Shown piece after piece: positions 2 to 48,449 of a DNA stretch of 59,081 nucleotides (position 1 is its first letter; each line of letters opens with the position of its first letter). Origin of the DNA: an uncultured Flavobacteriales bacterium (lineage in GTDB: Bacteria; Bacteroidota; Bacteroidia; Flavobacteriales_D; Sanyastnellaceae). The notes beneath the pieces were generated by a model. That model saw nothing but the letters and a program-made list of their open reading frames with translations. It made no database searches and was not told where the DNA came from. Where the stretch lies: positions 1-59,081 of the forward strand of contig CAWVYB010000001.1 of NCBI GenBank assembly GCA_963934215.1, written 5' to 3'. The position numbers were made by a program, and so were the translations under genes.

Positions 2-241
2 ATTCAATCGTATTCTACGCAGGCACTGGAGGAGATGGCGGAGCAATTGGTACGGCACGGTCAAGACGCATTGGTCGTTGGTCACAGCAATACGACAGGC
101 GTGCTCGCGGGTCTCTTGGTTGGTGAAGAAATCGGGTCCTTCGATGAATCGATTTATAACCGTGTGTACCAGGTGGTCATTTCAAAAAATGACAAGCGGC
201 TCCATGTCTTCCATACTGCCTTTGACTGCGCGGGACGTTAG
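2..241 (+). CDS. Histidine phosphatase superfamily (SixA/PGAM-like) protein, C-terminal fragment; the 5' end lies outside the window
   Basis: The frame is open from the window edge. The tail ...QDALVVGHSNTTGVLAGLLVGEE... carries the C-terminal GHS(N) His motif typical of branch-1 histidine phosphatases. A hairpin terminator follows. Confidence 0.5.
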   Translation: MQSYSTQALEEMAEQLVRHGQDALVVGHSNTTGVLAGLLVGEEIGSFDESIYNRVYQVVISKNDKRLHVFHTAFDCAGR

Positions 242-247
242 CACATA

Positions 248-282
248 AAAATCCCCGCAGCCGTCTCCGGTGCAGGGATTTT
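248..282. terminator. Bidirectional Rho-independent terminator between convergent genes
   Basis: AAAATCCCCGCA (248-259) pairs with TGCAGGGATTTT (271-282) with one mismatch. There is an A-run on the left and a T-run on the right, so each strand has a hairpin followed by a U-tract. It sits between the stops at 241 (+) and 319 (-). Confidence 0.55.
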
Positions 283-318
283 ACAAGAACTCAACTTCGA
301 GGCTGATCAGCAGCGGTG

Positions 319-3300
319 TTACACTTTGATTACTTTGAAGTTCTGTTCAAACGTCTGAGTGAAGCACTTGACGAAGTATGTGCCGGGAGCATAGCCACTG
401 AGCGAAATCATCATTCGAGTTCCTCCATTTGGAATGCTACTTGTTTCGAGGACCCGGCCCAATCGATCCAACACTATGATTTGCAAAGGCTCATCCCAAG
501 TGCCCGAAGACTCGATTTCAATACTGAATTGATCGCTTGTGGGGTTGGGGTAAATCTTGATCAAGGTGTCGTCGGCCACATCCTCATCAACAGTGACAAC
601 GCCGCTAGGGACAAGCAATCGTTCAAATTCATAAGCACACACACTGAGGTTGTCCGTTACGACGACATTGTATTCGCCGACGGGTAGATTCATAAATGTA
701 CCAGACGTTGCAAAGTTTTGTCCGCCATCAATGCTGTATTGGTATGAACTTTCTCCAGACAAAGCCGTGATCACAATCGAGCCGTCCGCAGTCAACACGG
801 AATAGGGGTGAGTGACGTTGATTTCCAAATCTGTAAAGTCGCATACGTCTACAAAAATGGTTTCCATGTAGGTGCAGGTTCCGCTTTCGTTTTGAACAAC
901 GACATCGTACGCTCCTGCACTGAGGCCTTCGAATGTGTTAGCACTTCCGAATGACTGTCCGGCGTCGATGCTGTATTCAAAATTGTCCGCCGCAGTAAAT
1001 GTCGTGATGGTGATGATTCCGTCATCCGCAGATGAAGATGAGGTGTGTTCAACATCGATGTCGGCCAAAATTTCACAGCCATTGTCCCCGGCGCAAAAAG
1101 ACTCGACGGCTTCATTGTCAAAATCGCCATCGTTGGAAACGATGATTTCGCCTTCAGAATTCCACACTTGGAAATACCCCTGTCCGAAGCCACAGCACAT
1201 GCCATCGCCATATGAATCAAATACATACAAGGTGAGACACGAGCTAGAACTGACACAGATTTCCTCTGTGTATTCGTCAGTATCTTCACCTAAGTCGCCT
1301 TCAGATACGATCTGTAATGATCCCACATCGATCATTTTCCAAGAAGTTTCACCGGGATAATTGTCCGCGAGGAAATAGAGCGTGAGGGTTTCAAAGTCCA
1401 CCTCCAAATCGGCGCTTGTTGTCGCTGTGTTGTTGCTGGCGTTTCCGTCAGTGACTCCGTTGACGTTGGTGATGGCCAACTGAATGACGTTGCTAGTGGA
1501 GAGGAAGTCGTCTTCTATAAGGAAAGACAAGCTGCCCTGTTCTTGGGAAACAATATCCACATCTTCCTCTAAGACCGCCATCACTTCGTCATTGACCAAG
1601 ACTAGGATTTCTACAGATTCAATGGCCTCTTCACCAAGGTTGGTCAGCACGACACTGACACCCATTTGACCATCGCATGTCGAGTTGACCTGGCCAATGG
1701 CAATGGATGCGTCCAGCGCATGGGGGTGACTGAGAACGAAATCAAGTGTGTCGTTGTTTCCATAACCATCGTCTGGGTCGGATACAACACCCGTGATCAT
1801 GTAATCACCTGTGGCTGAGAAATCTTGTGGCGTAGTGAATTGAAATTCAGCGTCGCTGAAAGGCTCAATCACATCGGTGATGTTCATGGTTTCCATCAAC
1901 TGTCCGTCCACAAGCAAGGAGAGATCGAAATCACTCATGTCATTCAATCCCGTGTTGGCCACCCGGATGGTGACCATTTCTTCCGTTCCCAATGAGGAGG
2001 AAGCCACCGGATCGATGAGCTCTTCAACAGCCAAGTCATCATCGGCTTTGATACCAGCCCAAAATGACACCCACGGTCGTGCTTGCTTGATGATCAATTG
2101 GTCTTCGGCCGTAACCTTGTATTCAATGTCCATACCGAACCCTTCGATTCCTTCTACGCCATAAAGCACGGCAAACTCGTCATGGATGACGTTCAGGTAT
2201 TCCCTGAGGAGGTCGAGGTGTTCTAAATCCATAACCAGCTCTCCAGGTTCCACCAGATTGGACAACCTCAACACGATAAACCCAGCCCCCTCTGTCGGAT
2301 CTTCGTAGAGCAGAATCTCTTCAGGAACGGCATTGGGATCGGGATTTGTAATCAATGACTCACCCACTTGGGTGTTCAAATAAAACGTCCCTTGACTATC
2401 ATAAATGGGGTCCAGGCTGATCCCAACTCCATTGGACTGTTCCTCCTGAAAATTGGGATGGCACAAGACACCCATAGCGGCCATGAAATGATCTACGCGG
2501 TAAAAATCACGTTCTTCATAGGCTCTAAAATTCCACATGCTCGCATACACCTGCTTGATGGACTTTGAGATGTGTCCTTCCTCGGGATATTGGGTCTTGG
2601 ACGTGTAAAGTCCAGCGCCGCTAAACCCTGGTAAATCTTCGTTGTTTGTACTCGATCGGCATCGAACGGGCGTTCCCACAGGAAAGGAGTCGTGCATCTC
2701 TTGCAAAGCGTCCATCATCCAAGGGGGCATCGGCGCGTCTTTGATGTCGTCTCTGAAATCACGCAAACGGTCTTCACGAAAATCAATGTCATAAATGAAT
2801 GACGGGTTGGTAATCATGACTTCTGCCTCTTCATAGAAGTCATTGTACTGCATGAATTCGTCGTAGAAATAAAACGGAACTCCGTAGCCATCTGGAATGG
2901 TGCCTTCAGGAAATCCGAACGTCCGCATTGTGGACACGTTAGCACATTTTGCACCGAGTGCCGAGGACATATCAAAACTGATATCATCCAAAGGTAAAAT
3001 CTCGGTGATGCTCAAATCCCGCTCAGGAATTTGCGGATCTGTCGGTCGGAGATCCTCGTACCAGTCGTTGACCTCATCCAGTGTCGCTTCCCGAATGTAA
3101 TAGGACGCTGCCTCAACGCGATAATAAATATAGTTCCCCAAAAGGCTGGCGATGGAATCGATGGAAAGGGGATCGGCGATGTACGCATTGGGCACATTGT
3201 CTTGAATGGCCCGCAGGTTAACGTGCGATAATGGCGTTTGAATGACGGATGTCATAATTCCGCCCACGCGGGGAAGTGAGTTTGGCAAGGCATCGTACAA

Positions 3301-4269
3301 AACGATATCCCGTGAGCCAGGGGTCTCATCGAGCTCCATGTGTCGGAAGAAACCAAAGCCTTCAGCTTGGTGCAGGGGGATGTAATCCACGTTTCCAAAC
3401 ACGACCGACTCCAGCACCACGTCGATTCCGGAATCTTCATAATCGTCTGCGTAATCGTCGAGGTAGTCATCTTCATCATTTTCACCGATGAAGTGGTTCA
3501 TGTTGTTTTGTACAAAAGGCATACTCGCCATCAGCAGCTGGTAGGTTCTCTGGGTTGCCTCGAAATCGTACGCATTTCCGAAAGAGAAGTTGAATGAATA
3601 CCCGCCAATGAGTCCATTGGGATTGAACTGTATGGGATTGAACACAATTTCTCCAGAAGAATCATCCCCTGTGACATCCGCACCAATGGCATTCCAAAAG
3701 CCATAGTGGACGCCGTGGGTATTGCTATTGATAAAATACACCTTGGGCTCAGGGGTGTCCCGGTCGAGAATTCCGAATTTCACATACAACTGGTCGTCAA
3801 GAAATGGCGCCCAACCCACGTTGTTGACATCGGCGAGATTGAGGAATGTTTCGGCGTCGGGGATGGAGGTTGCTCCGTTCTCGAAATCGACGGCTTCCGC
3901 AAAATTCAATGGCGCGTCGGTTGGCATGTTCTGGAATTCCGTGATATCGTCAATTCCATCTCCATCGATGTCTCCTGGGTTTGAGGCGTCGTATTCCCAG
4001 ACGGTATAGTTCTCCAAGGGGTATGCGGCACCAGGTTCTGAAATCACCATCGTACCATCCACGCCCATCGTCATGGAAGAGGTCCACTCAAAAGAGGGGC
4101 TGTGCTGCGCTTGTAAGATGTAATATTTGCCAGACTCCCCTTCGATTGAGAGTTGGACTTGACCGAATACATTGACCGAATAATCCTCAATCGGAACGGT
4201 GACTTGCGCAATGAACTGGCTGTGAAGCAGAACGGTGCAAAGGAGAATAAGGTGATGGAGGTATTTCAT
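319..4269 (-). CDS. Large T9SS-secreted multidomain protein: swivel (PEP-utilizer mobile)-like segment, PPDK_N-type ATP-grasp domain, 2 CARDB-like domains, a DSYGDG Cys-rich module, 2 SprB-type repeats, T9SS C-terminal sorting domain
   Basis: The start is set at MKYLHHLILLCTVLLHSQFIAQ (signal peptide, ATG at 4269), not the ORF-track start at 4305. PPDK_N motifs seen: GAKCANVSTMRTFGFPEGTIPDGYGVP, RCRSSTNNEDLPGFSGAGLYTS, IKQVYASMWNFRAYEERDFY, MDIEYK..LIIKQARPWV. Swivel-like segment: DIVLYDALPNSLPRVGGIMTSVIQTPLSHVNLRAIQDNVPNAY. C-terminal sorting domain: KIYPNPTSDQFSIEIES...GTYFVKCFT..KVIKV. Confidence 0.9.
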   Translation of the reverse strand: MKYLHHLILLCTVLLHSQFIAQVTVPIEDYSVNVFGQVQLSIEGESGKYYILQAQHSPSFEWTSSMTMGVDGTMVISEPGAAYPLENYTVWEYDASNPGDIDGDGIDDITEFQNMPTDAPLNFAEAVDFENGATSIPDAETFLNLADVNNVGWAPFLDDQLYVKFGILDRDTPEPKVYFINSNTHGVHYGFWNAIGADVTGDDSSGEIVFNPIQFNPNGLIGGYSFNFSFGNAYDFEATQRTYQLLMASMPFVQNNMNHFIGENDEDDYLDDYADDYEDSGIDVVLESVVFGNVDYIPLHQAEGFGFFRHMELDETPGSRDIVLYDALPNSLPRVGGIMTSVIQTPLSHVNLRAIQDNVPNAYIADPLSIDSIASLLGNYIYYRVEAASYYIREATLDEVNDWYEDLRPTDPQIPERDLSITEILPLDDISFDMSSALGAKCANVSTMRTFGFPEGTIPDGYGVPFYFYDEFMQYNDFYEEAEVMITNPSFIYDIDFREDRLRDFRDDIKDAPMPPWMMDALQEMHDSFPVGTPVRCRSSTNNEDLPGFSGAGLYTSKTQYPEEGHISKSIKQVYASMWNFRAYEERDFYRVDHFMAAMGVLCHPNFQEEQSNGVGISLDPIYDSQGTFYLNTQVGESLITNPDPNAVPEEILLYEDPTEGAGFIVLRLSNLVEPGELVMDLEHLDLLREYLNVIHDEFAVLYGVEGIEGFGMDIEYKVTAEDQLIIKQARPWVSFWAGIKADDDLAVEELIDPVASSSLGTEEMVTIRVANTGLNDMSDFDLSLLVDGQLMETMNITDVIEPFSDAEFQFTTPQDFSATGDYMITGVVSDPDDGYGNNDTLDFVLSHPHALDASIAIGQVNSTCDGQMGVSVVLTNLGEEAIESVEILVLVNDEVMAVLEEDVDIVSQEQGSLSFLIEDDFLSTSNVIQLAITNVNGVTDGNASNNTATTSADLEVDFETLTLYFLADNYPGETSWKMIDVGSLQIVSEGDLGEDTDEYTEEICVSSSSCLTLYVFDSYGDGMCCGFGQGYFQVWNSEGEIIVSNDGDFDNEAVESFCAGDNGCEILADIDVEHTSSSSADDGIITITTFTAADNFEYSIDAGQSFGSANTFEGLSAGAYDVVVQNESGTCTYMETIFVDVCDFTDLEINVTHPYSVLTADGSIVITALSGESSYQYSIDGGQNFATSGTFMNLPVGEYNVVVTDNLSVCAYEFERLLVPSGVVTVDEDVADDTLIKIYPNPTSDQFSIEIESSGTWDEPLQIIVLDRLGRVLETSSIPNGGTRMMISLSGYAPGTYFVKCFTQTFEQNFKVIKV

Positions 4270-4519
4270 TTCAAGCGGTTCGGTTAAGCCAAGTTGGATA
4301 CACAAGGTCGTACCTTTTTTTTAAACGCCTCTGCGCCTTGATTGGTTGCTTAGATCGCAGCGATTTTGATGGGATCGACAATTGCATCCAATCGTGTTGG
4401 TTTGCTGATCTGTATTCATTGCACTGTGGCGCAGCCAACGCTCATTTCCTTTGATATTTGTCACAAAGCTGCGGTATTCGTTTCTCTTCAAAAGGAAGAA
4501 ACGGGGGGTGGATCATCGT

Positions 4520-5140
4520 TCAACCCGTAATCACAGTGGCAATGGCTTTGCTAACCGTGAGGTGTTGAACTGGACTCCAATGGAGACTGTCCTGAAAATC
4601 GTAGTCTAACAACCCCGCTACATTCAGGAAATGAACACCTCGATTGCGCGCTTCTCGTTCGATGAGTTCGGGCAAATCGCGCGCAGTTTGGGATGCGCCT
4701 ACAAACCATTCAGGTAGTTGTTGACTGGCTTCATTGGTTGAGGTCGGAGTGCAAACGAGCAATTGCGGGCGATGCTCGGCGAGGTATGCGCTTTGGAGCA
4801 CACCATCGCATAGCAGCCCCACATTGGCCGCGATTTGCTCAGCGGATGAATTGAAATGCGTTTTGAGGTCATTTGTACCGAGCATGATGATCACCCAATC
4901 AAGTGGGCGATGAGCTTCCAATAAGATCGGCAAGATCTCGAGACCGCTCCGAATGGGTCGCTCGATTTCGTTATGTGCCGTGGTGCGTCCATTGAGTCCC
5001 TCTTCGATGATTCGGTAATTGTCCGAGCCGAGGGTTTTTTGGAGAGCACCAGGCCAACGCGTTGCAAAATCGTAACGCGAGCCGTCGATGGGGTCGTATC
5101 CCCACGTGTTAGAATCACCGAAGCAGAGAATGGTTTGCAT
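4520..5140 (-). CDS. SGNH/GDSL hydrolase, MsAcT-like aryl esterase/acyltransferase
   Basis: MQTILCFGDSNTWGYDP (block I, GDS), IEEGLNGRTT (block II), IIMLGTNDLK (block III), DSLHWS (block V, DxxH). Overall it is collinear with the Mycobacterium smegmatis perhydrolase-type esterases as I remember them. Confidence 0.85.
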   Translation of the reverse strand: MQTILCFGDSNTWGYDPIDGSRYDFATRWPGALQKTLGSDNYRIIEEGLNGRTTAHNEIERPIRSGLEILPILLEAHRPLDWVIIMLGTNDLKTHFNSSAEQIAANVGLLCDGVLQSAYLAEHRPQLLVCTPTSTNEASQQLPEWFVGASQTARDLPELIEREARNRGVHFLNVAGLLDYDFQDSLHWSPVQHLTVSKAIATVITG

Positions 5141-5269
5141 GGGTAGAATGCTAATCGTGAAGATACACCTCTCAACTACGGGTTTGCCTCGGCGCTTAAA
5201 CGGGGTTAAATTCTCTGTAAATCTTGAGAAACCTTAGACCTTCGATGAATAAATTAAGCGCAAGACGAA

Positions 5270-6604
5270 TTACTCTTCCTCTGGCTCTCCGGTCACCCGA
5301 ATGTTTTGGGTGTTGTCATACTGAATGCTTCCGATGAACGAATTGGTTCCAATGGAGAGGTCTGCAGACCCACCAGGCCGTTGTAAGAGCGTATTGCCAT
5401 GTCCTCCTGCAATGGTAGCTCCGTTACCACCTCGATTGTTATTGTTGAACCCCCCAAAAACAGATCGGGCCTGGCTTCCTTGCCAGAGCGAGTCGGTGGT
5501 GAGTGTATTGCCGTAACCGCCTGAGATGACGCCACAATACCCGGAATTCAGATTGGCATACCTTCCACCTAAAATCACTGAAAAACGTGTGTCAGTCGAG
5601 TCTGAGCCAAGATGATGATTTTCACCACCTACAACAACAGCTTGATTGCCTTCGATTGTACTTCCTGTGCTCCCCACCATGACAGACTCTGATCCATGGA
5701 CCTGACTGTCACGACCTCCAACTACAGCCGCAAGCTGTCCCGAAACAGTGTTGTCATAACCAGCGAATATGGCAGAATAATTGCCGTCATTGATCGTATT
5801 CCCTTGTCCTCCGCATATCACATTGGCCCATGTCTGACTGCCGACATTCGTTTGGATGAGGTTGCCTGATCCACCGACGAGGACGCCCAATTCCTGCCAA
5901 TTCTCATTGCCGATGCCGCCAACGATTGCTCCATCATCAGAATCAAGGATGTTATTTCTACCCCCGATGGTTACTCCTGTCGAAAGCGAAGAAATGTTGT
6001 ATCGTCCACCAATCATTCCGCCGCGCGATCCTGAGTATTCGTTCTGAAGTCCAGATACAATTCCGAAATCACCATGAGATTTGTTCGACGATCCGCCAAT
6101 GATATTACCAGATCCGTTGTATGTGTTTCCGGCACCCAACACCAAATTGTGCGACCCTTGTCGGTCGATAAGTTGCTGGGCGCTGTCCACGGTATTGTAC
6201 CCAACAATGATGTTACCAAGGGCGTTGCCCTCGAGTAACTCACCGCTACCATTCACGACTTGAAGGTTTGCACCCGACAATAGTACCGTTTGAGTTTCAT
6301 CATCCACACTCATATATCCATTCAATCCCAATACTGTGGAAGCCTCCAATGTCTCCACTTGCAGTTGCAACGCTTCAATCGTCTGCTGCATTGTCAGTAG
6401 CACCTCCGCCAATGCGACGCCGTCAACCACTATTTCACCTGGCTGAAAGCTTTCTCCAAAAATGGACAACACAGGTAGCAAATCAGTAACTCCAATAAGC
6501 TCATCATTGTCGGCATCAGGATTGTAGGGGTAAACAATCGCCTCCTGAGAAGAAACATGGTAGCAGGTCAAAAAGGCAAAAAAACTGATGAGAATGGTTT
6601 TCAT
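5270..6604 (-). CDS. Secreted protein: signal peptide, dockerin-like Ca-binding motif, short coiled coil, then Gly/Asn-rich beta-helix repeats (tail-fibre / Hep_Hag-like)
   Basis: Signal peptide MKTILISFFAFLTCYHVSSQ. Dockerin-like motif YNPDADNDELIGVTDLLPVLSIFG. Heptad-like stretch LLTMQQTIEALQLQVETLEAS. After that come about 20 degenerate repeats of the type GG(R/S)xNxhxxxxxxhhGG. Confidence 0.7.
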   Translation of the reverse strand: MKTILISFFAFLTCYHVSSQEAIVYPYNPDADNDELIGVTDLLPVLSIFGESFQPGEIVVDGVALAEVLLTMQQTIEALQLQVETLEASTVLGLNGYMSVDDETQTVLLSGANLQVVNGSGELLEGNALGNIIVGYNTVDSAQQLIDRQGSHNLVLGAGNTYNGSGNIIGGSSNKSHGDFGIVSGLQNEYSGSRGGMIGGRYNISSLSTGVTIGGRNNILDSDDGAIVGGIGNENWQELGVLVGGSGNLIQTNVGSQTWANVICGGQGNTINDGNYSAIFAGYDNTVSGQLAAVVGGRDSQVHGSESVMVGSTGSTIEGNQAVVVGGENHHLGSDSTDTRFSVILGGRYANLNSGYCGVISGGYGNTLTTDSLWQGSQARSVFGGFNNNNRGGNGATIAGGHGNTLLQRPGGSADLSIGTNSFIGSIQYDNTQNIRVTGEPEEE

Positions 6605-6640
6605 ATCGTAGAATTTGGTCTAAAAAAAACATAGTTTAGT

Positions 6641-6648
6641 CAAATTTA
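6641..6648 (-). promoter_or_regulatory. Candidate Bacteroidota -7 promoter box (TAAATTTG) for the 5270..6604 gene
   Basis: An exact TAnnTTTG match on the minus strand, 37 nt upstream of the ATG at 6604. Confidence 0.3.
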
Positions 6649-6696
6649 AATCACGATTCGCTTGAATATGATACATATTTGGTACATTTATGTGTC

Positions 6697-7941
6697 ATGA
6701 TTCAAAACCTACTATCGGAGGTCATAAAGACATCGGGTATTGCGATTCATACCCGCGGTGATTGCGAGTTTCTCTCCGCATTGATTTTGGAGGAGACCGA
6801 TCAATTTATCAGTTACAACACGTTGCGCCGCTTGTATGGATTGGCAGCAAGCCGCACTCCTCGTCAGCAAACGCTCAACACCCTTGCTAGATTTTGCGGC
6901 TACGGCGGATATCGAGAGTTTTGTGGTGTGCAGCCGAAATTGAATCTGTGGAAACAAAAAGAAGAATTGTATCTGATTCTTGCTAGAAGAGAGCCCCAAG
7001 AAGCCGTCACCTTTTTCGCTCAAATAGAGAATGACCTGGTACGACTTGAATTGCTTTTGTGCGCATTCCGAGAGTCCTTTCTCTCTAATCAAGACGATTT
7101 CATCATTGCACTGTTGGATGCAGATGCTTACGAGCTCAACAGATACCCTTACACCTACCAAATCCACACGGCCATTGCCATGGGACTGGTCATCCGTGAC
7201 CATCCCATTGCCGATCGTGTTAAGTTGCTATCGCATCCGAAGATGGTGGAATCCATCTACCTGAGGCTCATTGATTACTCGGCCTTGAATGGTTATTATG
7301 GGGAATGGACGCAGATGCTGGCCATGCAGCCGATTTCTTTGGAATGCGAGGTTTTCATCGGGTGTCTTGAAAGATTAAAGGCCGTTTTGAATCAGTCGGA
7401 AATCGTTCCACGGGAATGGACTGAGCTCCCGTGGAAGGATTTACATCCGGCATTGCGAGGCCGCATCTTTACCGTTCAGTTCATGGGGGATCAAACACAC
7501 ACCTTTGATTTCTTTTGGCTCAAAATGTTCGGCTCACTCGATAAAACTGACTTGGAGTTGTCAGCCTTCATTGAGCCGAGCACATTTGCCGTAACAATGG
7601 GGCATCGGCAACTGGCTGCATGGCTGATTGAAAAAATTCAAATCAACGAAGCAACGTTGCATCAATTTCAACAGCATGATTTGCATGTGCATTTTTTAAT
7701 GCAAGCGATGCATGCAGTATTTGAGGGAAACAGCAAAGGAGCGCACTTCTGGATGTCACGATTTGACGAAACCGAATTGCGACGACCATGCTTTTATGAT
7801 TTCCTTCTATTCCCTGTCCGACGGCTACAAGCGGAACTCAACGGCACAGCAGATAGGTATCCTCAAGAAGTCCAGCAAACGGTATCCCGTCTTGGACACA
7901 CGTGGTTTTCCAAAGACTTGTGGCGCACCTTCTTTGATTGA
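6697..7941 (+). CDS. Hypothetical cytoplasmic all-alpha protein (414 aa), function unknown
   Basis: A long ORF with no signal peptide. The first ATG is at 6697 (MIQNLLSEV...), whereas the track start at 6679 is a TTG. I recognise no motif. The N-terminal ~75 aa (..ISYNTLRRLYGL..LNTLARFCGYGGYREF) looks like a small helical, possibly DNA-binding, head. Confidence 0.6.
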   Translation: MIQNLLSEVIKTSGIAIHTRGDCEFLSALILEETDQFISYNTLRRLYGLAASRTPRQQTLNTLARFCGYGGYREFCGVQPKLNLWKQKEELYLILARREPQEAVTFFAQIENDLVRLELLLCAFRESFLSNQDDFIIALLDADAYELNRYPYTYQIHTAIAMGLVIRDHPIADRVKLLSHPKMVESIYLRLIDYSALNGYYGEWTQMLAMQPISLECEVFIGCLERLKAVLNQSEIVPREWTELPWKDLHPALRGRIFTVQFMGDQTHTFDFFWLKMFGSLDKTDLELSAFIEPSTFAVTMGHRQLAAWLIEKIQINEATLHQFQQHDLHVHFLMQAMHAVFEGNSKGAHFWMSRFDETELRRPCFYDFLLFPVRRLQAELNGTADRYPQEVQQTVSRLGHTWFSKDLWRTFFD

Positions 7942-8450: not shown

Positions 8451-10244
8451 ATGAAACAACTTTTTCTCACTTGCGCACTCGCAGTCCTTGTTTTGAGCGC
8501 TGGCGTTGCCCAAGGCACGACCACATTGGACTTGGCTCTCATAGGGAGCCCTGCAAATAACTTCGAGCCTTTCGAAGTCAACCTTTCTTTCAATGTGCTC
8601 CCTGATTCCATGGGTACCGGAAACGAGATGGGTTCAGGTTGGGACACTTTTGACCCGAATTACACCTTTTCAATGTCTCCACTTCTCACGATGACTACAG
8701 AGTACTATTGGGGTGAGCCCGTCAACCCGCTTGAGATGTATATCGCTGTCATTTGTGGCGCAGACACATCCATTTTGCCTCCCGTGTATTTCCAAGGCAT
8801 ACCCGATGCAGACGGAAATATCAATTACACTGCCAACGTAGAAGTGGGTTGCGGCGACGGCGGTGGAGATTGGGACTGCCCAAATTTAATGGGTAATATC
8901 GGTTGGGGATGCCAGGACGGATGGGGCGTCATTGATGAAAATTGCGATTGCGTTGAATACATCGAGCCTGAAAGTTGCTTAGAAGGCTTGGATACCGAAC
9001 TTCTGCTTATGTACGCGCTCTTGGAATGCGGAAACCAGGACAATCCCGATGCTTGGATGTATTGTGGGCTCATGGAATCCATTGTGGCTGGAGGGGAAGG
9101 CGACGAAGAAGCGTGCTCCGATGTGTGGGCATGGGTGGAGGCCAACGATTGGGATGGTTCATGGGACCCAGGCAATGGAGGCAATGATGTTGACTGCCCT
9201 AATCTTGGTGGAAATATCGGAGATTGGTGCACTGCTGCGAATGGTGGTTTTGGTGAAATAAACTCCGATTGCGAATGCATTGAGATTCCGGATTGCGATC
9301 TCGTCGTCGAAACCAACTTGCTGTCCATTGATGATGGAACGGGCTCTGGGAGTGTGGAAGCCATCGCATCAGGAGGTACACCTCCTTACGCTTATGTTTG
9401 GACGAATTTCTTTGATGAAGTTCTCGGAGCTGAAGCCACGCTCGACAGCGTCTTGGGCGGTACCTACTTTTTGCAAGTCACCGATGCCAACAATTGCATC
9501 GCTTTTGGTTGGGAAGATGTGCCCATGGCATGGGACTGTCCTGAACTCGAAGCCAATATAGGAGACTTCTGTGGCAATGGAGGAATGTTGCAAATCGTTT
9601 CAGAAGACTGTGAATGCGTCGACTATGAAGAACCCAACGCCTGCGTTGCTGACTTCACGGTAGTGCAAGCATACAATCAAAACGAAGTGATTCCATTTGA
9701 ACTCTTTGTCTTCATCTGGGGATATGACGAAAGCAACACGTACAGCTGGGACTTTGGTGATGAGGGCAGCAGCAGTGATCCTTTCCCGACTTGGACTTAC
9801 GGGGCAAGCGGTCCGTACAATCTGTGCCTCACCGTTTCAAACGAAGAAGAAAATTGTATCTCTACTTCATGCCAAATGCTCGAAATTGATTCGTTGGGTT
9901 GGATCAACGGATTCATGGACGGATTCAGCATCACAATTATGAACGGTGAAGATGGCGTGGTCAATAGCATAGAGGAAGAGGAAAACGAGGAATTCGGATT
10001 CAATGTTGCACCCAACCCGGTCACGGATGGTCGCTTTGATTTGAATTGGAAAGCGTCATCTGCTGGTCTTGTCGAAATCACCATGCTGTCGCTGGATGGA
10101 TCGGTGGTCTTCCAAACGACTCAAAACCGAGGAGAGACCGTGGGGAGACAATCCATTCAAGTTGAGCACCTCGCTCCGGGATTGTACGTATGCCAAATCC
10201 AGCAAGATGGTACTATTCGCACTGAGAAAGTTGTGATTCGCTAA
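8451..10244 (+). CDS. T9SS-secreted Cys-rich protein: three WDCPxLxxNIGDxC..CxC motifs, one SprB-type repeat, PKD-like module, T9SS C-terminal sorting domain
   Basis: Signal peptide MKQLFLTCALAVLVLSAGVAQ. SprB repeat DDGTGSGSVEAIASGGTPPYAYVW..GGTYFLQVTDANNC. PKD-like YSWDFGDEGSSSDPFPTWTYGASGPYNLCLTV. Sorting domain FNVAPNPVTDGRFDLNW..GLYVCQIQQDGTIRTEKVVIR. Confidence 0.9.
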   Translation: MKQLFLTCALAVLVLSAGVAQGTTTLDLALIGSPANNFEPFEVNLSFNVLPDSMGTGNEMGSGWDTFDPNYTFSMSPLLTMTTEYYWGEPVNPLEMYIAVICGADTSILPPVYFQGIPDADGNINYTANVEVGCGDGGGDWDCPNLMGNIGWGCQDGWGVIDENCDCVEYIEPESCLEGLDTELLLMYALLECGNQDNPDAWMYCGLMESIVAGGEGDEEACSDVWAWVEANDWDGSWDPGNGGNDVDCPNLGGNIGDWCTAANGGFGEINSDCECIEIPDCDLVVETNLLSIDDGTGSGSVEAIASGGTPPYAYVWTNFFDEVLGAEATLDSVLGGTYFLQVTDANNCIAFGWEDVPMAWDCPELEANIGDFCGNGGMLQIVSEDCECVDYEEPNACVADFTVVQAYNQNEVIPFELFVFIWGYDESNTYSWDFGDEGSSSDPFPTWTYGASGPYNLCLTVSNEEENCISTSCQMLEIDSLGWINGFMDGFSITIMNGEDGVVNSIEEEENEEFGFNVAPNPVTDGRFDLNWKASSAGLVEITMLSLDGSVVFQTTQNRGETVGRQSIQVEHLAPGLYVCQIQQDGTIRTEKVVIR

Positions 10245-10270
10245 CGTTCGATTCAATTCTGCTTTGAACT

Positions 10271-10310
10271 GAAATCCCGTAGACAAGTGGTCTGCGGGAT
10301 TTCTTCATAT
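10271..10310 (+). terminator. Rho-independent terminator after the 8451..10244 gene
   Basis: GAAATCCCGTAGAC (10271-10284) pairs with GTCTGCGGGATTTC (10290-10303): 14 bp including one G-U pair, a 5-nt loop, and a T-rich tail TTCTTCATATT. Confidence 0.65.
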
Positions 10311-10340
10311 TCCATCTGCCACTTTTTGATTCTGAGATTC

Positions 10341-11210
10341 ATGAAGCAAATCAAATTTCATCACGCGTTACAAGGGCCCATTTGCGCAGTCTTGGCAATA
10401 TCAATGGTGTTTCTGGCTTGTCAAAAAGAGGATATTGATGAGTTGACTATTTTAGAACAAGGAGAACACGAGCCTATTGATATCTACCCGCCATTCGACT
10501 GCGAACTTTTGCAATTGAACATAGGAGACACCTGTTTTCGCGAAGAAGGTGGAGCATTGCTCGAGGGGGTGGTGTCAGCGGCTTGTGAATGCACTGTCAA
10601 TGTCTCTTGCGGAATGGTGATTGACCTAGTCTCCTCGCCAGATGATGGAACGGGCAACGGTTCCCTTTTGGGCCTTGCTGAGGGGGGGACACCACCGTAC
10701 ACTTTCGCCTGGTATCAATCCGGTGCTTTGATTGGATCCCAATCCAACTTGGACGGACTTGAATTCGGAACCTACCAACTGGTCGTAAACGACGTAGGAT
10801 TTTGCTCAACGGCAGCGATAGCCGCTGTTGAATTGAACATAGCGGGCTGGGATTGTCCAGAACTGTTGAGCGACATAGGCGATAATTGCTTGATAGGTGA
10901 TACAATCCAGGGCATCGTTTCAGCTGACTGTATGTGCATTTCAACCCTTGACTGTTCCGTTTCGCTCTCGTTTTTATCGTCAACTGCAGACGATGGTTCT
11001 GGAAACGGTTCTGCTGAAATCTACGTGTCTGGAGGTGAGGGGCCATACGAATGGTCTCTGGCCACATCAGATTGGATTGAACAACAAGCCGGAAGCATCG
11101 AGGAGTCGGCAGGAGTCTTAACCCTCAATGCATTGACCTCTGGATTTTATGGTGTCCACTTTGTCGACGCTGAAGGTTGTCTCGCTCAAGTCTTGATCAG
11201 CGTCCCTTGA
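10341..11210 (+). CDS. Lipoprotein with alternating Cys-rich (xDCxxLxxxIGDxC..CxC) motifs and SprB-type repeats; paralogous to part of 8451..10244
   Basis: The start is set at MKQIKFHH..AISMVFLAC(Q), a lipobox with Cys at position 27. The track start at 10287 lies inside the upstream terminator hairpin. Motifs: FDCELLQLNIGDTC...ACEC and WDCPELLSDIGDNC...DCMC. SprB repeats: DDGTGNGSLLGLAEGGTPPYTFAW and DDGSGNGSAEIYVSGGEGPYEW. Confidence 0.8.
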   Translation: MKQIKFHHALQGPICAVLAISMVFLACQKEDIDELTILEQGEHEPIDIYPPFDCELLQLNIGDTCFREEGGALLEGVVSAACECTVNVSCGMVIDLVSSPDDGTGNGSLLGLAEGGTPPYTFAWYQSGALIGSQSNLDGLEFGTYQLVVNDVGFCSTAAIAAVELNIAGWDCPELLSDIGDNCLIGDTIQGIVSADCMCISTLDCSVSLSFLSSTADDGSGNGSAEIYVSGGEGPYEWSLATSDWIEQQAGSIEESAGVLTLNALTSGFYGVHFVDAEGCLAQVLISVP

Positions 11211-13116: not shown

Positions 13117-13216
13117 CTTGACTGCCCGTTTTGATTCAGCGCTGAGAACATGCTGACGCTGTATGTGTTTTCATCGAACTGTAAAAACGGTCGCTTGGTT
13201 TTCTATATATTTAGAA

Positions 13217-15802
13217 ATGCAAAAAGGAGTGATTCAACAGGGATTCTTTCTAATCGGAATGTTTCTGATGCTAAGCGCATTTGGCGCTGTGGGATTTGCT
13301 CAGTCAGATCTAGATCATTGGGAGGCAGTCGTCTTAGATGGATCTTCTTGGCGTTATTTGGTACCGAATGAACAGCCTGAATCGGATTGGTTGGCGCCGA
13401 ACTTTGATGATTTGTCTTGGCCGGAAGGTGTTTCGGGTTTTGGTTACGGCGACGGCGACGATGCGACTGTGGTTGAGTCGACGATGTCAATCTACTTGCG
13501 CCATCAATTTGAGATAGAGAACCTCAGTACATGGCTGGACGCGTCGTTTTATATGGACTATGATGATGGTTTTGTGGCATACCTCAACGGCGTTGAAATT
13601 GCGCGAGCCAATGCCGGAGCACCAGGAGAATTTGTGGCCTGGAATCAAAACTTGATCACCGATCATGAAGCAGTGCTGTATGCGGGAGGAATTCCATCGG
13701 CTTTCGAGTTTGACTTTGGCGGATTGTTGTTGGAGGGGACGAATACGCTGGCCATTGAGATGCACAACGCCAATCCCGGATCATCGGACTTGACGGCCCG
13801 GCCTTTTTTGTTTGTAGGCACAGGGGAGGAGTCGTTAGGTTTGAACTCCATTCCCGACTGGTTTTTTCCTTCAACTTCAGACTTTCATGAGGTGACAATC
13901 AACCTCAATATGGCCAATGAGACGGTGTCTCCGGAAGGTGTTTATTTGGCTGGAGGAGCGTATTTCGGTGTGGCGGGAGACAATCCCCTATCGGACCAAG
14001 ATGGCGATGGTATCTGGACAGTAACGGTTCCTGTTCCTCATGGCTTTACCGGCCATTACACATTTCTCAATGGGAATTGTGGTGATTGGAGCTGTAAAGA
14101 AAATATAGCAGGTCTGGAATGTGCGGACCCATCCAATTACAATGACAGACTGCTCGTCAATATCGTAGAACCCATTGATATCAGCACTTGTTTTGGTCAA
14201 TGCACCACTGATGGGACGTGCGCTGCGATTGTCGGATGCATGGATAGCGCGGCGCTTAATTACTTCCCATTGGCAACGGAGGACGATGGAACGTGTGTCT
14301 TTTTTGGGGGGTCGAATTTACCTGTTATCCAAATTGACTCTGACGGACCGATCCTTGACGACCCGCGCATTGTGGCGAATATGGCCATTGTCAACAATGA
14401 GATTGGTTTCAATCAAATCGGAGATTTCCCCAATGAATACAACGGCCAGATTGCCATCGAAATTCGAGGGTCTTCTTCTCAAATGTTCCCCAAAAAATCC
14501 TATGCCTTGGAAACACAGGATGTTGCTGGGGATAACAACAATGTCTCCCTTTTGGGAATGCCCGAGGAGAATGATTGGATTTTATACGGACCCTACACGG
14601 ACAAGACGCTTATCCGGAATGCATTGGTATTTGAATTGGGTGAAAAACTGAACCGTTACACGCCCCGCAGGCGGTTTTGTGAATTGTTCATCAATGGAGA
14701 TTACAGAGGAGTTTATATGCTCATGGAAAATATTAAACGCGACGCAAACAGGGTAGATGTCGCAAAGCTGTTGCCGGGCGATACGCTTGGTGATGAGTTG
14801 ACGGGAGGATATATTCTCAAAATCGACAAATTCACCGGGGATTTTGAAGGAGGCTGGGAGTCTCCATATGTTACTGAAGGAGGAGAGGAGTTGTTCGTGC
14901 AATTCCATAAACCAGAAATGGATGATCTGAATCCCCCTCAATTGGAATACATCCAAAGCCACATAACCGCTTTTGAGAATGCACTTGCAGGTCCAGATTT
15001 CACGGATTCCGAAATGGGCTATCAGCCATTCATCGATGTCTATTCTTTTATCGATCTGTATCTCGTGAATGAGCTTTCGAAAAATATCGATGGATACCGT
15101 TTGAGTACTTATTTCTACAAGCAGAAAGATTCCAATGGGGGTAAAATTGTCATGGGCCCATGGTGGGACTATAACCTCAGTTTGGGCAACGCAAATTACT
15201 GCGATGGATCCAACCCGGAGGGGTTTGAAGTGAATACGCCATGCGGCAATTCCAATCCATTTTGGTTTGAACGGTTGTTGGAAGATCCTTTTTATCGCGA
15301 TTTAGCAAGGTGCCGATGGGAAGAGTATCGCGCGGATGTTTGGAGCAATGAAAGCATTCATAGCACCGTTGATTCCCTTGCATCCTTACTTGTCGATGCC
15401 CGTGATCGCGACCATTCGAGATGGCCTCGATTGGGACAATGGATTTGGCCCAATGCGTTTGTCGGTGAAACCTACGAGGAAGAACTGGACTTCATGACCA
15501 CGTGGGTGGACAATCGGTTGGAATGGCTGGATGTCAATTTTTTAGGGGCATGCGATGCCGGTTGCACAACGGCTACAGCTTGCAATTTCAATCCCAATGC
15601 GAATTATGATGACGGTAGCTGCGAGCCATGTCCTTGTCCGGGTGATATCAATGGGGACTTGGCTGTGACGGTGTCAGATGTTTTGATCCTTCTGTCTGAA
15701 TTTGGATGCTCCTTGGATTGCGCTGCAGACTTCAATGAGGATGCCATTGTAAGCGTTTCGGATTTGCTGATACTGCTGGCATTTTATGGCGAAATCTGCT
15801 GA
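13217..15802 (+). CDS. Secreted CotH kinase-family protein (paralog 1) with two Cys-knot (C-x-D-x-x-A-x-N-[YF]) modules and a C-terminal tandem dockerin-like motif
   Basis: The start is set at MQKGVIQQGFFLIGMFLMLSAFGAVGFAQS (ATG at 13217). CotH core: IEIRGSSSQMFPKKSYALETQD..NVSLLGMPEENDWILYGPYTDKTLIRNALVFELG..CELFINGDYRGVYMLMENIKRDANRVDV..YILKIDK. C-terminus: GDINGDLAVTVSDVLILLSEFG...DFNEDAIVSVSDLLILLAFYGEIC. Confidence 0.9.
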   Translation: MQKGVIQQGFFLIGMFLMLSAFGAVGFAQSDLDHWEAVVLDGSSWRYLVPNEQPESDWLAPNFDDLSWPEGVSGFGYGDGDDATVVESTMSIYLRHQFEIENLSTWLDASFYMDYDDGFVAYLNGVEIARANAGAPGEFVAWNQNLITDHEAVLYAGGIPSAFEFDFGGLLLEGTNTLAIEMHNANPGSSDLTARPFLFVGTGEESLGLNSIPDWFFPSTSDFHEVTINLNMANETVSPEGVYLAGGAYFGVAGDNPLSDQDGDGIWTVTVPVPHGFTGHYTFLNGNCGDWSCKENIAGLECADPSNYNDRLLVNIVEPIDISTCFGQCTTDGTCAAIVGCMDSAALNYFPLATEDDGTCVFFGGSNLPVIQIDSDGPILDDPRIVANMAIVNNEIGFNQIGDFPNEYNGQIAIEIRGSSSQMFPKKSYALETQDVAGDNNNVSLLGMPEENDWILYGPYTDKTLIRNALVFELGEKLNRYTPRRRFCELFINGDYRGVYMLMENIKRDANRVDVAKLLPGDTLGDELTGGYILKIDKFTGDFEGGWESPYVTEGGEELFVQFHKPEMDDLNPPQLEYIQSHITAFENALAGPDFTDSEMGYQPFIDVYSFIDLYLVNELSKNIDGYRLSTYFYKQKDSNGGKIVMGPWWDYNLSLGNANYCDGSNPEGFEVNTPCGNSNPFWFERLLEDPFYRDLARCRWEEYRADVWSNESIHSTVDSLASLLVDARDRDHSRWPRLGQWIWPNAFVGETYEEELDFMTTWVDNRLEWLDVNFLGACDAGCTTATACNFNPNANYDDGSCEPCPCPGDINGDLAVTVSDVLILLSEFGCSLDCAADFNEDAIVSVSDLLILLAFYGEIC

Positions 15803-19927: not shown

Positions 19928-21103
19928 TCACTGGTATACTCGCACGTAATCCACGGCCATGAACTGAGGAAAGGTCGTGCTTTCGTTGGGGTAACCGGGC
20001 CATTGGCCGCCCACAGCGACATTCATGATGAAGAAGAATGGGTTGTCGAAGGGGTAGTTTTGATTGCCAGCTACCGTATTGCTCACGCTATAAAACGGTT
20101 GATCGTCGACAAGCCACGTAATGCCTGCGTCGTCCCATTCGATGGAAAACACATGGAATTCATCTGCGAATGTTTGTGGGCTGGGAATGGTGGTGCTTCC
20201 TCCGGTGTATTGATGCTGTGTCCAGCTGTTTCCAAAATGCAATGTGCCGTGGACATTGTTGGGGCTTGAGCCAATCAATTCCATGATATCAATTTCGCCG
20301 CAAGCGGGCCAACCAGCGCTGGGGAAATTCGCCCCCAACATCCAAATTGCTGGCCAAATGCCTTGGCCGAATGGCAGCACTGCACGCACATCAATGCGTC
20401 CATATTGAAACTCCTGGAGCCCAATGGATTTGAGCCGCGCGGAAGTGTATTGCGCTCCTTCTTTCTTGGCTACAATCATTAAATTACCATTGGCGACGTA
20501 TGAATTCTCACTGCTCGCAGTGTAATTCTGTAATTCTTGATTGCCCCATCCCGAAGCGCCGAGGTCGTACGTCCAGTTTTGAAGTGCGATTTCACTGCCA
20601 TCAAATTCATCGGACCAAACCATTGTTTTGCCATCATAGCTATCGGCGGCATCATATCCCGCTGTGGTAACTTGAATTACAGTGTCGTCGTTTTGAATGG
20701 TGCCGATGGCCTGCTGAAAGCCATCTAAAAATATGCCATTGGCTGACTCTGTAAGAACGACACGGAATTGCTCGTCTTCTTCTTTGAACTCATCGATTAC
20801 AATTTCTACTTCGATGATAGCTGAAGCGGTTCCTGCGGGGAAAATCACGGTGCCTTCCAAGCTGATGAAGTCGTTGCCTGCTTCCGCTGTTAGGGATTTC
20901 ACTTCATATTTCACAGTGACTTCTCGATCGGTGATGACGTTGAGTACAAGGGGAAATGAAAAAACAGCATTGGCCTCATTTTCTAAAGCACTGACATCAA
21001 TAGGGAATTGAATGGTAGGGATTGCGCTTGCGGTTTCATCTTTACAACAAGCGGCGAACAGGAAAAAGACGATGGGGAATGCAAGAGCAAATTTCAGATG
21101 CAT
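19928..21103 (-). CDS. Lipoprotein: Calx-beta domain plus GH16 endo-beta-1,3-glucanase (laminarinase-type)
   Basis: Lipobox FLFAAC(C). Calx-beta: VTVKYEVKSLTAEAGNDFISLEGTVIFPAGTASAIIEVEIVIDEFKEEDEQFRVVL. GH16 catalytic motif WPAIWMLG...WPACGEIDIMELIG (ExDxxE). Confidence 0.9.
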   Translation of the reverse strand: MHLKFALAFPIVFFLFAACCKDETASAIPTIQFPIDVSALENEANAVFSFPLVLNVITDREVTVKYEVKSLTAEAGNDFISLEGTVIFPAGTASAIIEVEIVIDEFKEEDEQFRVVLTESANGIFLDGFQQAIGTIQNDDTVIQVTTAGYDAADSYDGKTMVWSDEFDGSEIALQNWTYDLGASGWGNQELQNYTASSENSYVANGNLMIVAKKEGAQYTSARLKSIGLQEFQYGRIDVRAVLPFGQGIWPAIWMLGANFPSAGWPACGEIDIMELIGSSPNNVHGTLHFGNSWTQHQYTGGSTTIPSPQTFADEFHVFSIEWDDAGITWLVDDQPFYSVSNTVAGNQNYPFDNPFFFIMNVAVGGQWPGYPNESTTFPQFMAVDYVRVYQ

Positions 21104-21122
21104 GGCGAAAATATTAGAACGA

Positions 21123-21130
21123 CAAACCTA
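21123..21130 (-). promoter_or_regulatory. Candidate -7 promoter box (TAGGTTTG) for the GH16 gene
   Basis: An exact TAnnTTTG match on the minus strand, 20 nt upstream of the ATG at 21103. Confidence 0.35.
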
Positions 21131-21215
21131 CGAATATGCGTGGATTTTTTTTTCCGTTCTGTGCCTGTGGGTGGTTATTTAACGAACGAAAATGCTTTTT
21201 TTCCGAATAGAAGTG

Positions 21216-21223
21216 TAGTTTTG
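21216..21223 (+). promoter_or_regulatory. Candidate -7 promoter box (TAGTTTTG) for the GH5/SusC/SusD operon
   Basis: An exact TAnnTTTG match, 20 nt upstream of the ATG at 21243. Confidence 0.35.
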
Positions 21224-21242
21224 ACACAGTAATAAATTGGAT

Positions 21243-24011: not shown

Positions 24012-24122
24012 TCGCGAAATGAAGATGATGTGTCTGACTAAACACACAGTGACACGTCTATTCATGTTTTTAGAATTTACACATAGCTAGTAAGATTGAG
24101 GCCCTTTTAAAATCACCCTTTC

Positions 24123-27212: not shown

Positions 27213-27222
27213 GCACATTACA

Positions 27223-28848: not shown

Positions 28849-28909
28849 TCTTAAAAACCCGCAGTTGCTGCCAATTTGCTAATTCAATCAATCTATAAAA
28901 TTCAATCAA

Positions 28910-48092: not shown

Positions 48093-48449
48093 AGCGTTCT
48101 AAAGGAATGCAAAAAGTCGTGTGACGTAGTTTTTTTTTCTGGAGTCTAAAGCTAGGAGAGAGGCCGTGTTTTTTTGATCATTTTTCCTCTTGTGGGCCTA
48201 TTGGTGTGCCTGTGTAGTTTTTTTGCGAATTTATAGGGTTGTTTCGATGATTTTAAAATAAAAACCCGGTTGATAATCTAGATATTAAAACGGCGTAAAG
48301 GCATGAATAGGCTCAATTTCGTGACATGGCCTCTCTTTTTATCCAAACGTAAATAACTGATAATCAAAGACTAAAAAATTGTTGAGTTTTTGGATGTAAA
48401 CTAAATTTCATATAAATTTCTGATTACCAATCACTTGAATATTTATGTC

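Follow-up and report, generated by a model that had tools for sequence, protein, structure and literature searches.

The DNA analysed here is a stretch of 59,081 nt (positions 1 to 59,081, forward strand, of contig CAWVYB010000001.1, assembly GCA_963934215.1) from an uncultured Flavobacteriales bacterium of the Sanyastnellaceae, and is referred to below as the window. Close to its start, on the reverse strand, lies a single intact open reading frame (ORF) with its ATG at 4269 and the stop codon included at 319, as seen from the ORF list and the translation. The encoded protein of 1316 amino acids (aa) carries a signal peptide, a conserved unit of about 715 aa (aa 23-737) with an ATP-grasp domain as its last domain, and a C-terminal type IX secretion system (T9SS) tail. 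By analogy with known enzymes, the gene may well encode an exported, catalytically competent water dikinase of the ATP-grasp/phosphohistidine-swivel kind which acts on an extracellular acceptor. The ORF list also gives a TTG at 4305 as start. This codon is probably not the one used, because homologues start at the equivalent of MKYLHH. A protein of the public collection (P0122), also of 1316 aa, is 93% identical to the window protein.

Export signals were found at both ends of the protein. Judged by its sequence and by a crude hydrophobicity heuristic, the N-terminus (MKYLHHLILLCTVLLHSQFIAQ) looks like a Sec signal peptide. At the C-terminus, Por_Secre_tail (PF18962) was matched at aa 1239-1308 (E 2.8e-10, 40.8 bits vs a cut-off of 27), and the NCBIfam model for the type-A sorting domain, TIGR04183, scored 34.2 bits vs a cut-off of 23. 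The T9SS domain named in the initial annotation thus lies above the curated type-A threshold. Between this tail and the conserved unit, the CARDB domain that had been recognised from sequence gave a Pfam match at aa 745-833 (E 5e-7), with two stretches in the C-terminal fragment, and the region matched PDB entry 2l0d, a cell-surface protein, in a phmmer search of PDB sequences. The Cys-rich module with the motif DSYGDGMCCG had no Pfam family above threshold, and it is kept in the homologues P0037, P0054, P0101 and P0114. The SprB repeats proposed earlier were found only below threshold in the window protein (Pfam E 0.018-0.13), and the same holds for GBD_IRG7_N; in close homologues SprB (PF13573) is a precomputed match. 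The features of the gene, together with those of the neighbouring phosphatase gene discussed below, are collected in Table 1.

Table 1. Features of the dikinase-like gene and of the adjoining partner gene in the window.
Feature	Position (nt)	Strand	Basis
Whole gene, exported dikinase-like protein, 1316 aa + stop	319..4269	-	ORF list, translation
Signal peptide, aa 1-22 (MKYLHHLILLCTVLLHSQFIAQ)	4204..4269	-	Sequence, crude hydrophobicity test
N-terminal beta-sandwich, aa 23-95, within conserved unit	3985..4203	-	AlphaFold2 models, pLDDT >90
EF-hand-like Ca-binding loop DIDGDGIDDITE, aa 100-111	3937..3972	-	Alignment of 42 sequences
Conserved alpha/beta domain, aa ~130-295, VYFxNxxTHxxH motif	3385..3882	-	Alignments, confident AlphaFold2 model
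Phosphohistidine (swivel-type) domain, aa 296-420; candidate catalytic His349, codon 3223-3225	3010..3384	-	Motif, profile alignment, Foldseek
PPDK_N ATP-grasp nucleotide-binding domain, aa 421-737; K441, R536/R538, D714, E716, Q729, R731	2059..3009	-	Pfam, alignments, Foldseek
CARDB and CARDB-like beta-sandwich domains, aa 745-950	1420..2037	-	Pfam; PDB 2l0d
Cys-rich module with DSYGDGMCCG, aa ~955-1072	1054..1407	-	Sequence
Two SprB-like / galactose-binding-like repeats, aa ~1075-1215	625..1047	-	Sub-threshold Pfam matches
T9SS type-A C-terminal sorting domain, aa 1239-1316	322..555	-	PF18962, TIGR04183
3' end of partner histidine-phosphatase gene, last 79 codons + stop, cut by window edge	2..241	+	tblastn

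The presence of a PPDK_N domain, first read from the sequence, was confirmed by Pfam. PF01326 was matched at aa 437-732 (nt 2074-2961) over positions 3-308 of its 328 (E 3.7e-19, 69.6 bits vs a cut-off of 27), and the coordinates given initially were right to within about 30 nt. By phmmer, the PDB sequences matched were the phosphoenolpyruvate (PEP) synthases 9dae (E 7e-8) and 2ols, and the family profile reached E 3.6e-20 against PDB sequences, with PEP synthase bit scores of 56-75. In the phmmer alignments with 9dae and 2ols, GAK441CANV falls on GGKNASLGEM, VRCR538SSTNNEDLP on VAVRSSATAEDLP, MD714IE716Y on MDIEW and KQ729AR731P on LQARP. We take these positions to be the Lys/Arg phosphate ligands and the Glu/Gln Mg ligands of the PPDK/PpsA class of ATP-grasp enzymes. 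The ligands, whose integrity the initial annotation had left to be checked, are unmutated and align with those of the PEP synthase structures. They are also conserved, being invariant or conservatively replaced in nine divergent units and in 42 sequences down to 43% identity.

The AlphaFold2 model of aa 23-745 had a mean pLDDT of 83.8. When it was compared with the PDB by Foldseek, the best match was rifampin phosphotransferase (RPH) 5hv1 (E 2.3e-14), and further matches were HpeI 9goj (E 1.1e-12), PEP synthase 2ols and PPDK 1kbl. Each top match covered about 340 columns, which correspond to the ATP-grasp domain. Membership in the PEP synthase, PigC or RPH families was ruled out by NCBIfam: only the ATP-grasp half was matched by these models, with scores at least 10-fold below the cut-offs (TIGR01418, 54.1 bits vs 739.75; NF005057, 52.4 vs 598).

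Just upstream of the ATP-grasp domain lies the motif QTPL[S/A]HVNLRA with His349, which is invariant in the nine divergent units and the 42 sequences. The segment around it (aa 321-363, nt 3181-3309) had been proposed to be a PEP-utilizer mobile domain. PF00391 (PEP-utilizers) and the PEP/pyruvate domain PF02896 were both absent at E ≤ 1, and on the fragment searched separately PF00391 gave no match even at E ≤ 10. The classical PEP-utilizer label was dropped in favour of that of the glucan water dikinase (GWD) type, given the lack of a PF00391 match and a His-domain profile that was empty against the PDB. The sole Pfam family that recurred on the His domain was PF22973 (GWD1 phosphohistidine-like domain, GWD1_pHisD), always below its cut-off of 27 bits. 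It scored 13.6 bits (E 0.053) in the window protein and 15.4, 18.2 and 19.7 bits (E 0.014, 0.0019 and 0.00064) in three of six individual relatives, and the consensus sequence of the six gave no match.

For the comparison with GWD, a GWD C-terminus was used purely as bait. The best retrieved protein was 98% identical to the bait, the retrieved proteins are named alpha-glucan water dikinase by their sources, and 18 of them were aligned. The family alignment matched these 18 in hhalign with a probability of 97.1% (E 7.1e-11) over 390 columns, collinear along aa 296-737, with QTPLSH349VNLRA aligned on pDvLSHVSVRARN, so that His349 takes the position of the catalytic His of GWD. When the GWD set was searched with the family profile by hmmsearch, the match spanned the His-motif position in 78 of the 119 sequences hit. 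The GWD bit scores of about 37-75, among the sequences listed, were no better than those of PEP synthase (56-75). The RSSTNNEDLPGFSGAGLY block of the window protein stood opposite a gap in GWD in hhalign, and gave a non-collinear match to a late GWD block in hmmsearch. GWD membership was ruled out by the absence of carbohydrate-binding modules (CBMs), the sub-threshold PF22973 and the different layout of blocks in the ATP domain.

A second AlphaFold2 model, covering aa 23-420 and therefore no ATP-grasp domain, had a pLDDT of 89.7. It was matched by Foldseek to RPH 5hv2 over 114 columns (E 0.013, probability 1.0). This size would fit the swivel domain; which part of the target was aligned is not reported by Foldseek. 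In both models His349 stands at the N-terminal end of a helix, which is its usual place in swivel domains. The domain order claimed at the outset, with the His domain before the ATP-grasp domain and no PEP/pyruvate domain, was thus confirmed, and the catalytic His is present, invariant and aligned. As judged from these alignments, the His domain appears to be GWD-like and not classical: the GWD-type register upholds the first assignment in part, while PF00391 was not detected and the domain's own statistics are marginal.

As a separate observation, four proteins of the GWD search (P0463, P0474, P0484 and P0490) carry both PF22973 and PF01326 and are 47-50% identical to the plant-derived bait. 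They are labelled as coming from metagenome-assembled genomes (MAGs) of Gemmataceae, Planctomycetes and Nitrospirales, and are either genuine bacterial GWDs or products of bins contaminated with algal DNA.

In the N-terminal part of the conserved unit, no Pfam family was matched in aa 23-320 at E ≤ 10. The Ca-binding-like loop noticed in the initial annotation (DIDGDGIDDITE) proved to be a 12-residue pattern of the EF-hand type, D100-x-D-x-D-G-x-x-D-x-x-E111, in which D100, D102, D104, D108 and E111 are invariant in 42 sequences. The alignments also showed that H188 of the VYFxNxxTHxxH motif is invariant. Apart from RPH, the Foldseek matches of the aa 23-420 model were generic Ig-like ones, with no significant CBM-like match, and the alpha/beta domain had no PDB fold match at E ≤ 0.001. 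This domain is kept even in minimal members such as P0254, which itself is without the beta-sandwich. It is proposed to be the acceptor-binding domain. No model for the unit of about 715 aa or for its N-terminal domains was present in Pfam (2025) or NCBIfam release 20.

The protein belongs to a very large family. Homology with distant members spans aa ~25-735 in BLASTP, beyond the catalytic half, and an exhaustive search with aa 300-745 reached, at E ≤ 0.001, the representatives of 3393 clusters formed at 50% identity, at least 926 of them at E ≤ 1e-30. The core is about 50-55% identical in proteins of 640-3770 aa and may stand anywhere along their length. Precomputed domains fused to it include the T9SS tail, CARDB, fn3, cadherin, cadherin-like, FlgD-Ig, Big_2, PKD, SLH and CW_binding_2. 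By the crude hydrophobicity test, a signal-peptide-like N-terminus was found in 110 of 120 close relatives, and in 93 of 145 and 89 of 112 proteins in the two other member sets; members without it look mostly like truncated gene calls. From the fusions and the signal-like N-termini across the family it follows that export is a family property, and not an accident of the window gene. Two fusions are possible pointers to the substrate class. P0130 joins the dikinase unit to two sulfatase domains on one polypeptide, and in P0165 its companions on the chain are a soluble glucose/sorbosone dehydrogenase and leucine-rich repeats. Two complete or nearly complete dikinase units each were also seen in the giant metagenomic proteins P0121 (aa 289-946 and 1715-2422) and P0123 (aa 50-753 and 1526-2009), with dozens of Ig-like repeats of type NSPATGAPTISGTAQVGETLTADTSGIADADGL between the two copies.

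When each GTDB species is represented by one genome, a relative is encoded at 544 or more loci. The best 80 of these fall in marine Flavobacteriales, Crocinitomicaceae, Saprospiraceae and Chitinophagales, the closest being an uncultured Flavobacteriales MAG with 91% identity, and one branch of the family is Verrucomicrobiales. Among 20 clusters looked up for the taxonomy of the giant high-GC members, the only one that carried a name was a Verrucomicrobiales cluster. Records titled euryarchaeote, Methanobacteriota, Aeromicrobium and Comamonadaceae, at 74-88% identity, were taken as binning errors and not as the real distribution. Two copies of the gene occur in some Chitinophagales and Saprospiraceae genomes (the loci L052 and L078 are from the same MAG), and in L075 the copies stand in tandem at 23-3274 and 3678-6956. 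The names given by NCBI to members of the family are only those of PEP/pyruvate-binding domain-containing proteins. In the literature searched (full text), an exported protein of the PPDK_N or GWD-like kind was nowhere described; a mention of PPDK_N in a giant-gene paper concerns intracellular domains. This agrees with the initial remark that no described example was known, but the protein is no isolated oddity: it is a member of a very large family that is consistently extracellular by architecture. What is new is that the dikinase family is exported, has acceptor-side domains not seen before and comes with a phosphatase of its own; the chemistry is known.

The gene neighbourhood was surveyed by clustering all ORFs with a length of 120 aa or more at the 80 best of the at least 544 loci. 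Exactly one neighbour family recurred, in 42 of the 80 loci by clustering and in 48 by tblastn; the runner-up was found in 6. Its members have about 180 aa, start with a hydrophobic, signal-like stretch and contain a His_Phos_1 domain with RHAE...R...GHSN motifs, and the full-length copy of L001, at 9964-10512, matched PF00300 with E 3e-13. They are of SixA size, and no NCBIfam family could be assigned; the match to the SixA model was weak (E 0.0033) and far below its cut-off. The last 79 residues of the partner are encoded in the window at nt 2-238, with 72% identity to the L001 copy (tblastn E 1.8e-36), and the gene is convergent with the dikinase gene. A partner placed downstream and convergent was also seen in L001, L002 and L079, and in most Flavobacteriales-type loci it stands about 20-250 nt upstream on the same strand. 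The dikinase and phosphatase genes form the only DNA-level block common to the window and its closest relatives. A terminator scan between the two convergent genes found nothing. Having a signal peptide and no T9SS tail, the partner phosphatase is probably periplasmic, as far as its sequence tells. Gene context was dropped as a clue to the pathway, as four loci outside the Flavobacteriales clade had no conserved neighbour.

From the observed architecture, conserved residues, export signals and gene linkage we infer the activity, location, acceptor and ATP source of the protein as follows. The protein would be exported by Sec across the inner membrane and by the T9SS across the outer membrane. 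By analogy with PPDK, PEP synthase, GWD and rifampin phosphotransferase, ATP would bind to the C-terminal ATP-grasp domain, the beta,gamma-pyrophosphate would be passed to His349 with release of AMP, and the gamma-phosphate would be hydrolysed to inorganic phosphate (Pi). The His domain would then swivel and hand the beta-phosphate to an acceptor held by the N-terminal alpha/beta domain. This acceptor would most likely be a hydroxyl on a polymer outside the cell, probably a glycan of algae or particles. A glycan is weakly suggested by the sulfatase and sugar-dehydrogenase fusions and by lifestyle genes of the window (GH16, GH5-CBM6, SusC/SusD). In the lineage of the window, the histidine phosphatase with its signal peptide could remove the phosphate from the product or from the phospho-enzyme. 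SixA enzymes dephosphorylate phosphohistidine proteins (PMC7948535). Such a pair of dikinase and phosphatase would parallel the plant starch cycle of GWD/PWD (PWD, phosphoglucan water dikinase) and SEX4/LSF2, in which SEX4 and LSF2 recycle the product (PMC12892837). The ATP would have to be external, supplied for instance by lysing phytoplankton or by release from cells.

Several points weigh against an extracellular dikinase acting on a polymer. We know of no ATP source outside the cytoplasm. The conserved unit holds no recognised carbohydrate-binding module, and its N-terminal domains have no structural analogue by Pfam and Foldseek. The fusions that hint at sugars were seen in just two proteins, and the dikinase gene is located outside the SusC/SusD locus of the window, about 15 kb away, with no conserved neighbour apart from the phosphatase. 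Beside the Saprospiraceae copies the partner is missing, L056 with a copy of 33% identity being the exception, and at four loci from other branches there is neither the phosphatase nor a conserved neighbour; the partner is therefore not essential to the enzyme. Concerning the His domain, its match to GWD on its own is marginal in profile-profile comparison (E 0.001, probability 21.6%, in the same register), and the His-domain-only profile found nothing in PDB sequences at E ≤ 10.

Two of the functions put forward in the initial annotation, the transfer of phosphate to an acceptor and the use of extracellular ATP as the target, are both still candidates. The same dikinase chemistry could be directed at a small molecule (an antibiotic, a phenolic or an algal toxin), inactivating or tagging it. 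RPH and HpeI are the best structural matches, the acceptor domain is novel and leaves the ligand class open, and the superfamily is able to phosphorylate very different hydroxyl compounds (PMC4844700, PMC12167813). However, the small-molecule dikinases known are cytoplasmic, the fusions to adhesin-like repeats, sulfatase and sugar dehydrogenase fit a surface or polymer setting better, and it would seem inefficient to spend scarce external ATP on diffusible molecules; a small-molecule acceptor is regarded as rather unlikely. It is likewise improbable that the nucleotide itself is the target, extracellular ATP being converted to AMP + 2 Pi by the protein alone or together with its partner phosphatase. 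Water or the phosphatase would then be the final acceptor, and the gain would be phosphate scavenging or the removal of an ATP signal of a host or alga. A histidine-phosphatase-superfamily partner of the size of SixA, which acts on phosphohistidine (PMC7948535), would agree with this, as would two further genes of the window, one for a purple acid phosphatase with a T9SS tag and one for an Exo_endo_phos protein. Against it, much simpler ecto-phosphatases and nucleotidases would suffice, a conserved N-terminal region of 270 aa in which some residues are invariant points to a genuine acceptor site, most branches of the family lack the phosphatase, and the SixA match is weak.

The lack of extracellular ATP and the embedding of the family in adhesin-like repeat proteins could also speak for a pseudo-enzyme, that is, an adhesin or binding module built on the dikinase fold that might bind nucleotides or phosphorylated ligands but would not turn over. 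Such a degenerate binding module, considered in the initial annotation, fits poorly with the fact that all catalytic residues are invariant: the His and all ATP/Mg ligands are invariant or conservatively kept, and the core is about 50-55% identical across 926 clusters. This conservation indicates selection on catalysis. A pseudo-enzyme is the reading least compatible with the conservation pattern, and we give it very little probability. As little weight can be given to a site of action within the cell envelope, for instance a periplasmic one that precedes or replaces export, or to export signals that do not function, although a partner phosphatase that is probably periplasmic would be in keeping with it. 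The periplasm too is without ATP, as is well established, the sorting domain scores above curated thresholds, seven other proteins of the window have the same tail, and members from other lineages carry SLH or cell-wall-binding domains.

The rest of the window is rich in exported proteins. Eight proteins with a T9SS sorting domain are encoded in 59 kb, an unusually dense exported cargo; besides the dikinase, they start at 8451, 21237, 31512, 36858, 43054, 51670 and 55504. These seven other sorting-domain proteins would imply, from their sequences, a working T9SS. A cluster of the polysaccharide-utilisation type, at 19928-30610, is not syntenic with the dikinase gene in relatives. It contains a GH16 protein with Calx-beta, a T9SS-tailed GH5 protein with CBM35 and CBM6, and further a SusC-like TonB receptor, a SusD-like protein and a PKD-repeat protein. 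The purple acid phosphatase (Pur_ac_phosph_N + Metallophos + Por_Secre_tail) is encoded at 36858-39248 (+) and is followed by the Exo_endo_phos family protein at 39356-40411 (+); judged by sequence, the two look like an exported pair for phosphoester hydrolysis. The three CotH kinase homologues reported initially are real, being located at 13163-15802 (+), 51670-53961 (+) and 55504-57414 (-) with Pfam E values of 1.5e-61, 5.2e-52 and 2.7e-39. A T9SS tail was found on two of them, those at 51670 and 55504, and none was detected on the one at 13163-15802. They pose the same puzzle of extracellular ATP as the dikinase. In addition, a 1017-aa ORF at 48435-51488 (+) had no Pfam match at E ≤ 0.001, and a 444-aa Gly/Asn-rich repeat protein at 5270-6604 (-) shows a signal-peptide-like start and a sub-threshold antifreeze beta-roll match.

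Current models of how marine polymers are degraded, and of what T9SS cargo does, do not include ATP-dependent phosphotransfer outside the bacterial cytoplasm. A large conserved family with all its catalytic residues intact suggests that such chemistry occurs and is under selection. The unit of about 715 aa, being one polypeptide with an obvious active-site His and a candidate phosphatase, opens a way into the puzzle of exported kinases, including CotH. It also offers a new putative acceptor-side domain for the dikinase superfamily and, with its domains in the GWD order, a candidate relative among prokaryotes. More tentatively, and with low confidence, it can be imagined that extracellular dikinases in marine Bacteroidota and unrelated lineages loosen insoluble or recalcitrant glycans for hydrolysis, as a bacterial counterpart of GWD/SEX4 in which the phosphatase removes the phosphate afterwards, and that the family is perhaps the prokaryotic kin of the eukaryotic glucan dikinases. 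If extracellular glycan dikinases do exist, extracellular ATP would be a usable energy currency in the phycosphere.

Among known systems, PpsA and PPDK share with the window protein the ATP-grasp ligand motifs GxK, RSS..EDLP, DIE and QARP and provide its best PDB sequence matches, and catalysis would likewise go via a swivelling His. In contrast to the window protein, where the His domain comes first, their order is reversed (ATP-grasp, His domain PF00391, PEP/pyruvate domain PF02896). They are cytoplasmic, and their PF00391 and PEP/pyruvate TIM-barrel domains are missing in the window protein. RPH (5hv1, 5fbs) is the best structural match of the ATP-grasp domain and the only notable one for the fragment without it, and it too is a dikinase, built of three domains, the third of which binds the acceptor (PMC4844700). 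It differs in its order of ATP-grasp, rifampin-binding and His domains, in an unrelated acceptor domain, in being cytoplasmic and in its small-molecule substrate. The phenol-type two-component kinases (phenylphosphate synthase, HpeHI/AcvAB) have the same dikinase chemistry (PMC12167813), and in structure HpeI 9goj comes close to the ATP-grasp domain of the window protein. However, their ATP-grasp and His/substrate parts are separate cytoplasmic subunits, whereas the window protein is one exported polypeptide. The CotH secreted kinases, encoded in the same genome, are also predicted ATP-dependent phosphotransferases with export signals, but they have a protein-kinase-like fold and transfer the gamma-phosphate directly, an unrelated chemistry.

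GWD and PWD (EC 2.7.9.4 / 2.7.9.5) resemble the window protein in having a phosphohistidine domain directly before a C-terminal PPDK_N domain, no PEP/pyruvate domain and the catalytic His in the same register (LSHVxxRA). Their PF22973 is the only family that touches the His domain of the window protein, and its phosphatase partner recalls SEX4/LSF2. According to a 2026 review, no GWD or PWD structure has been solved (PMC12892837). The plant enzymes are plastidial or cytosolic, while the window protein is exported; they have CBM45 or CBM20, of which the window protein has none, and PF22973 stays below threshold in it. Upstream of the His domain GWD is helical, in contrast to the beta-sandwich, Ca loop and alpha/beta domain of the window protein. 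At the position of RSSxxxEDLP GWD has a gap, and a similar block (FRSDSNGEDLEGYAGAGLYDS) is located about 100 aa from its C-terminus, whereas the family of the window protein holds this block at the PEP-synthase position (RSSTNNEDLPGFSGAGLY in the window protein).

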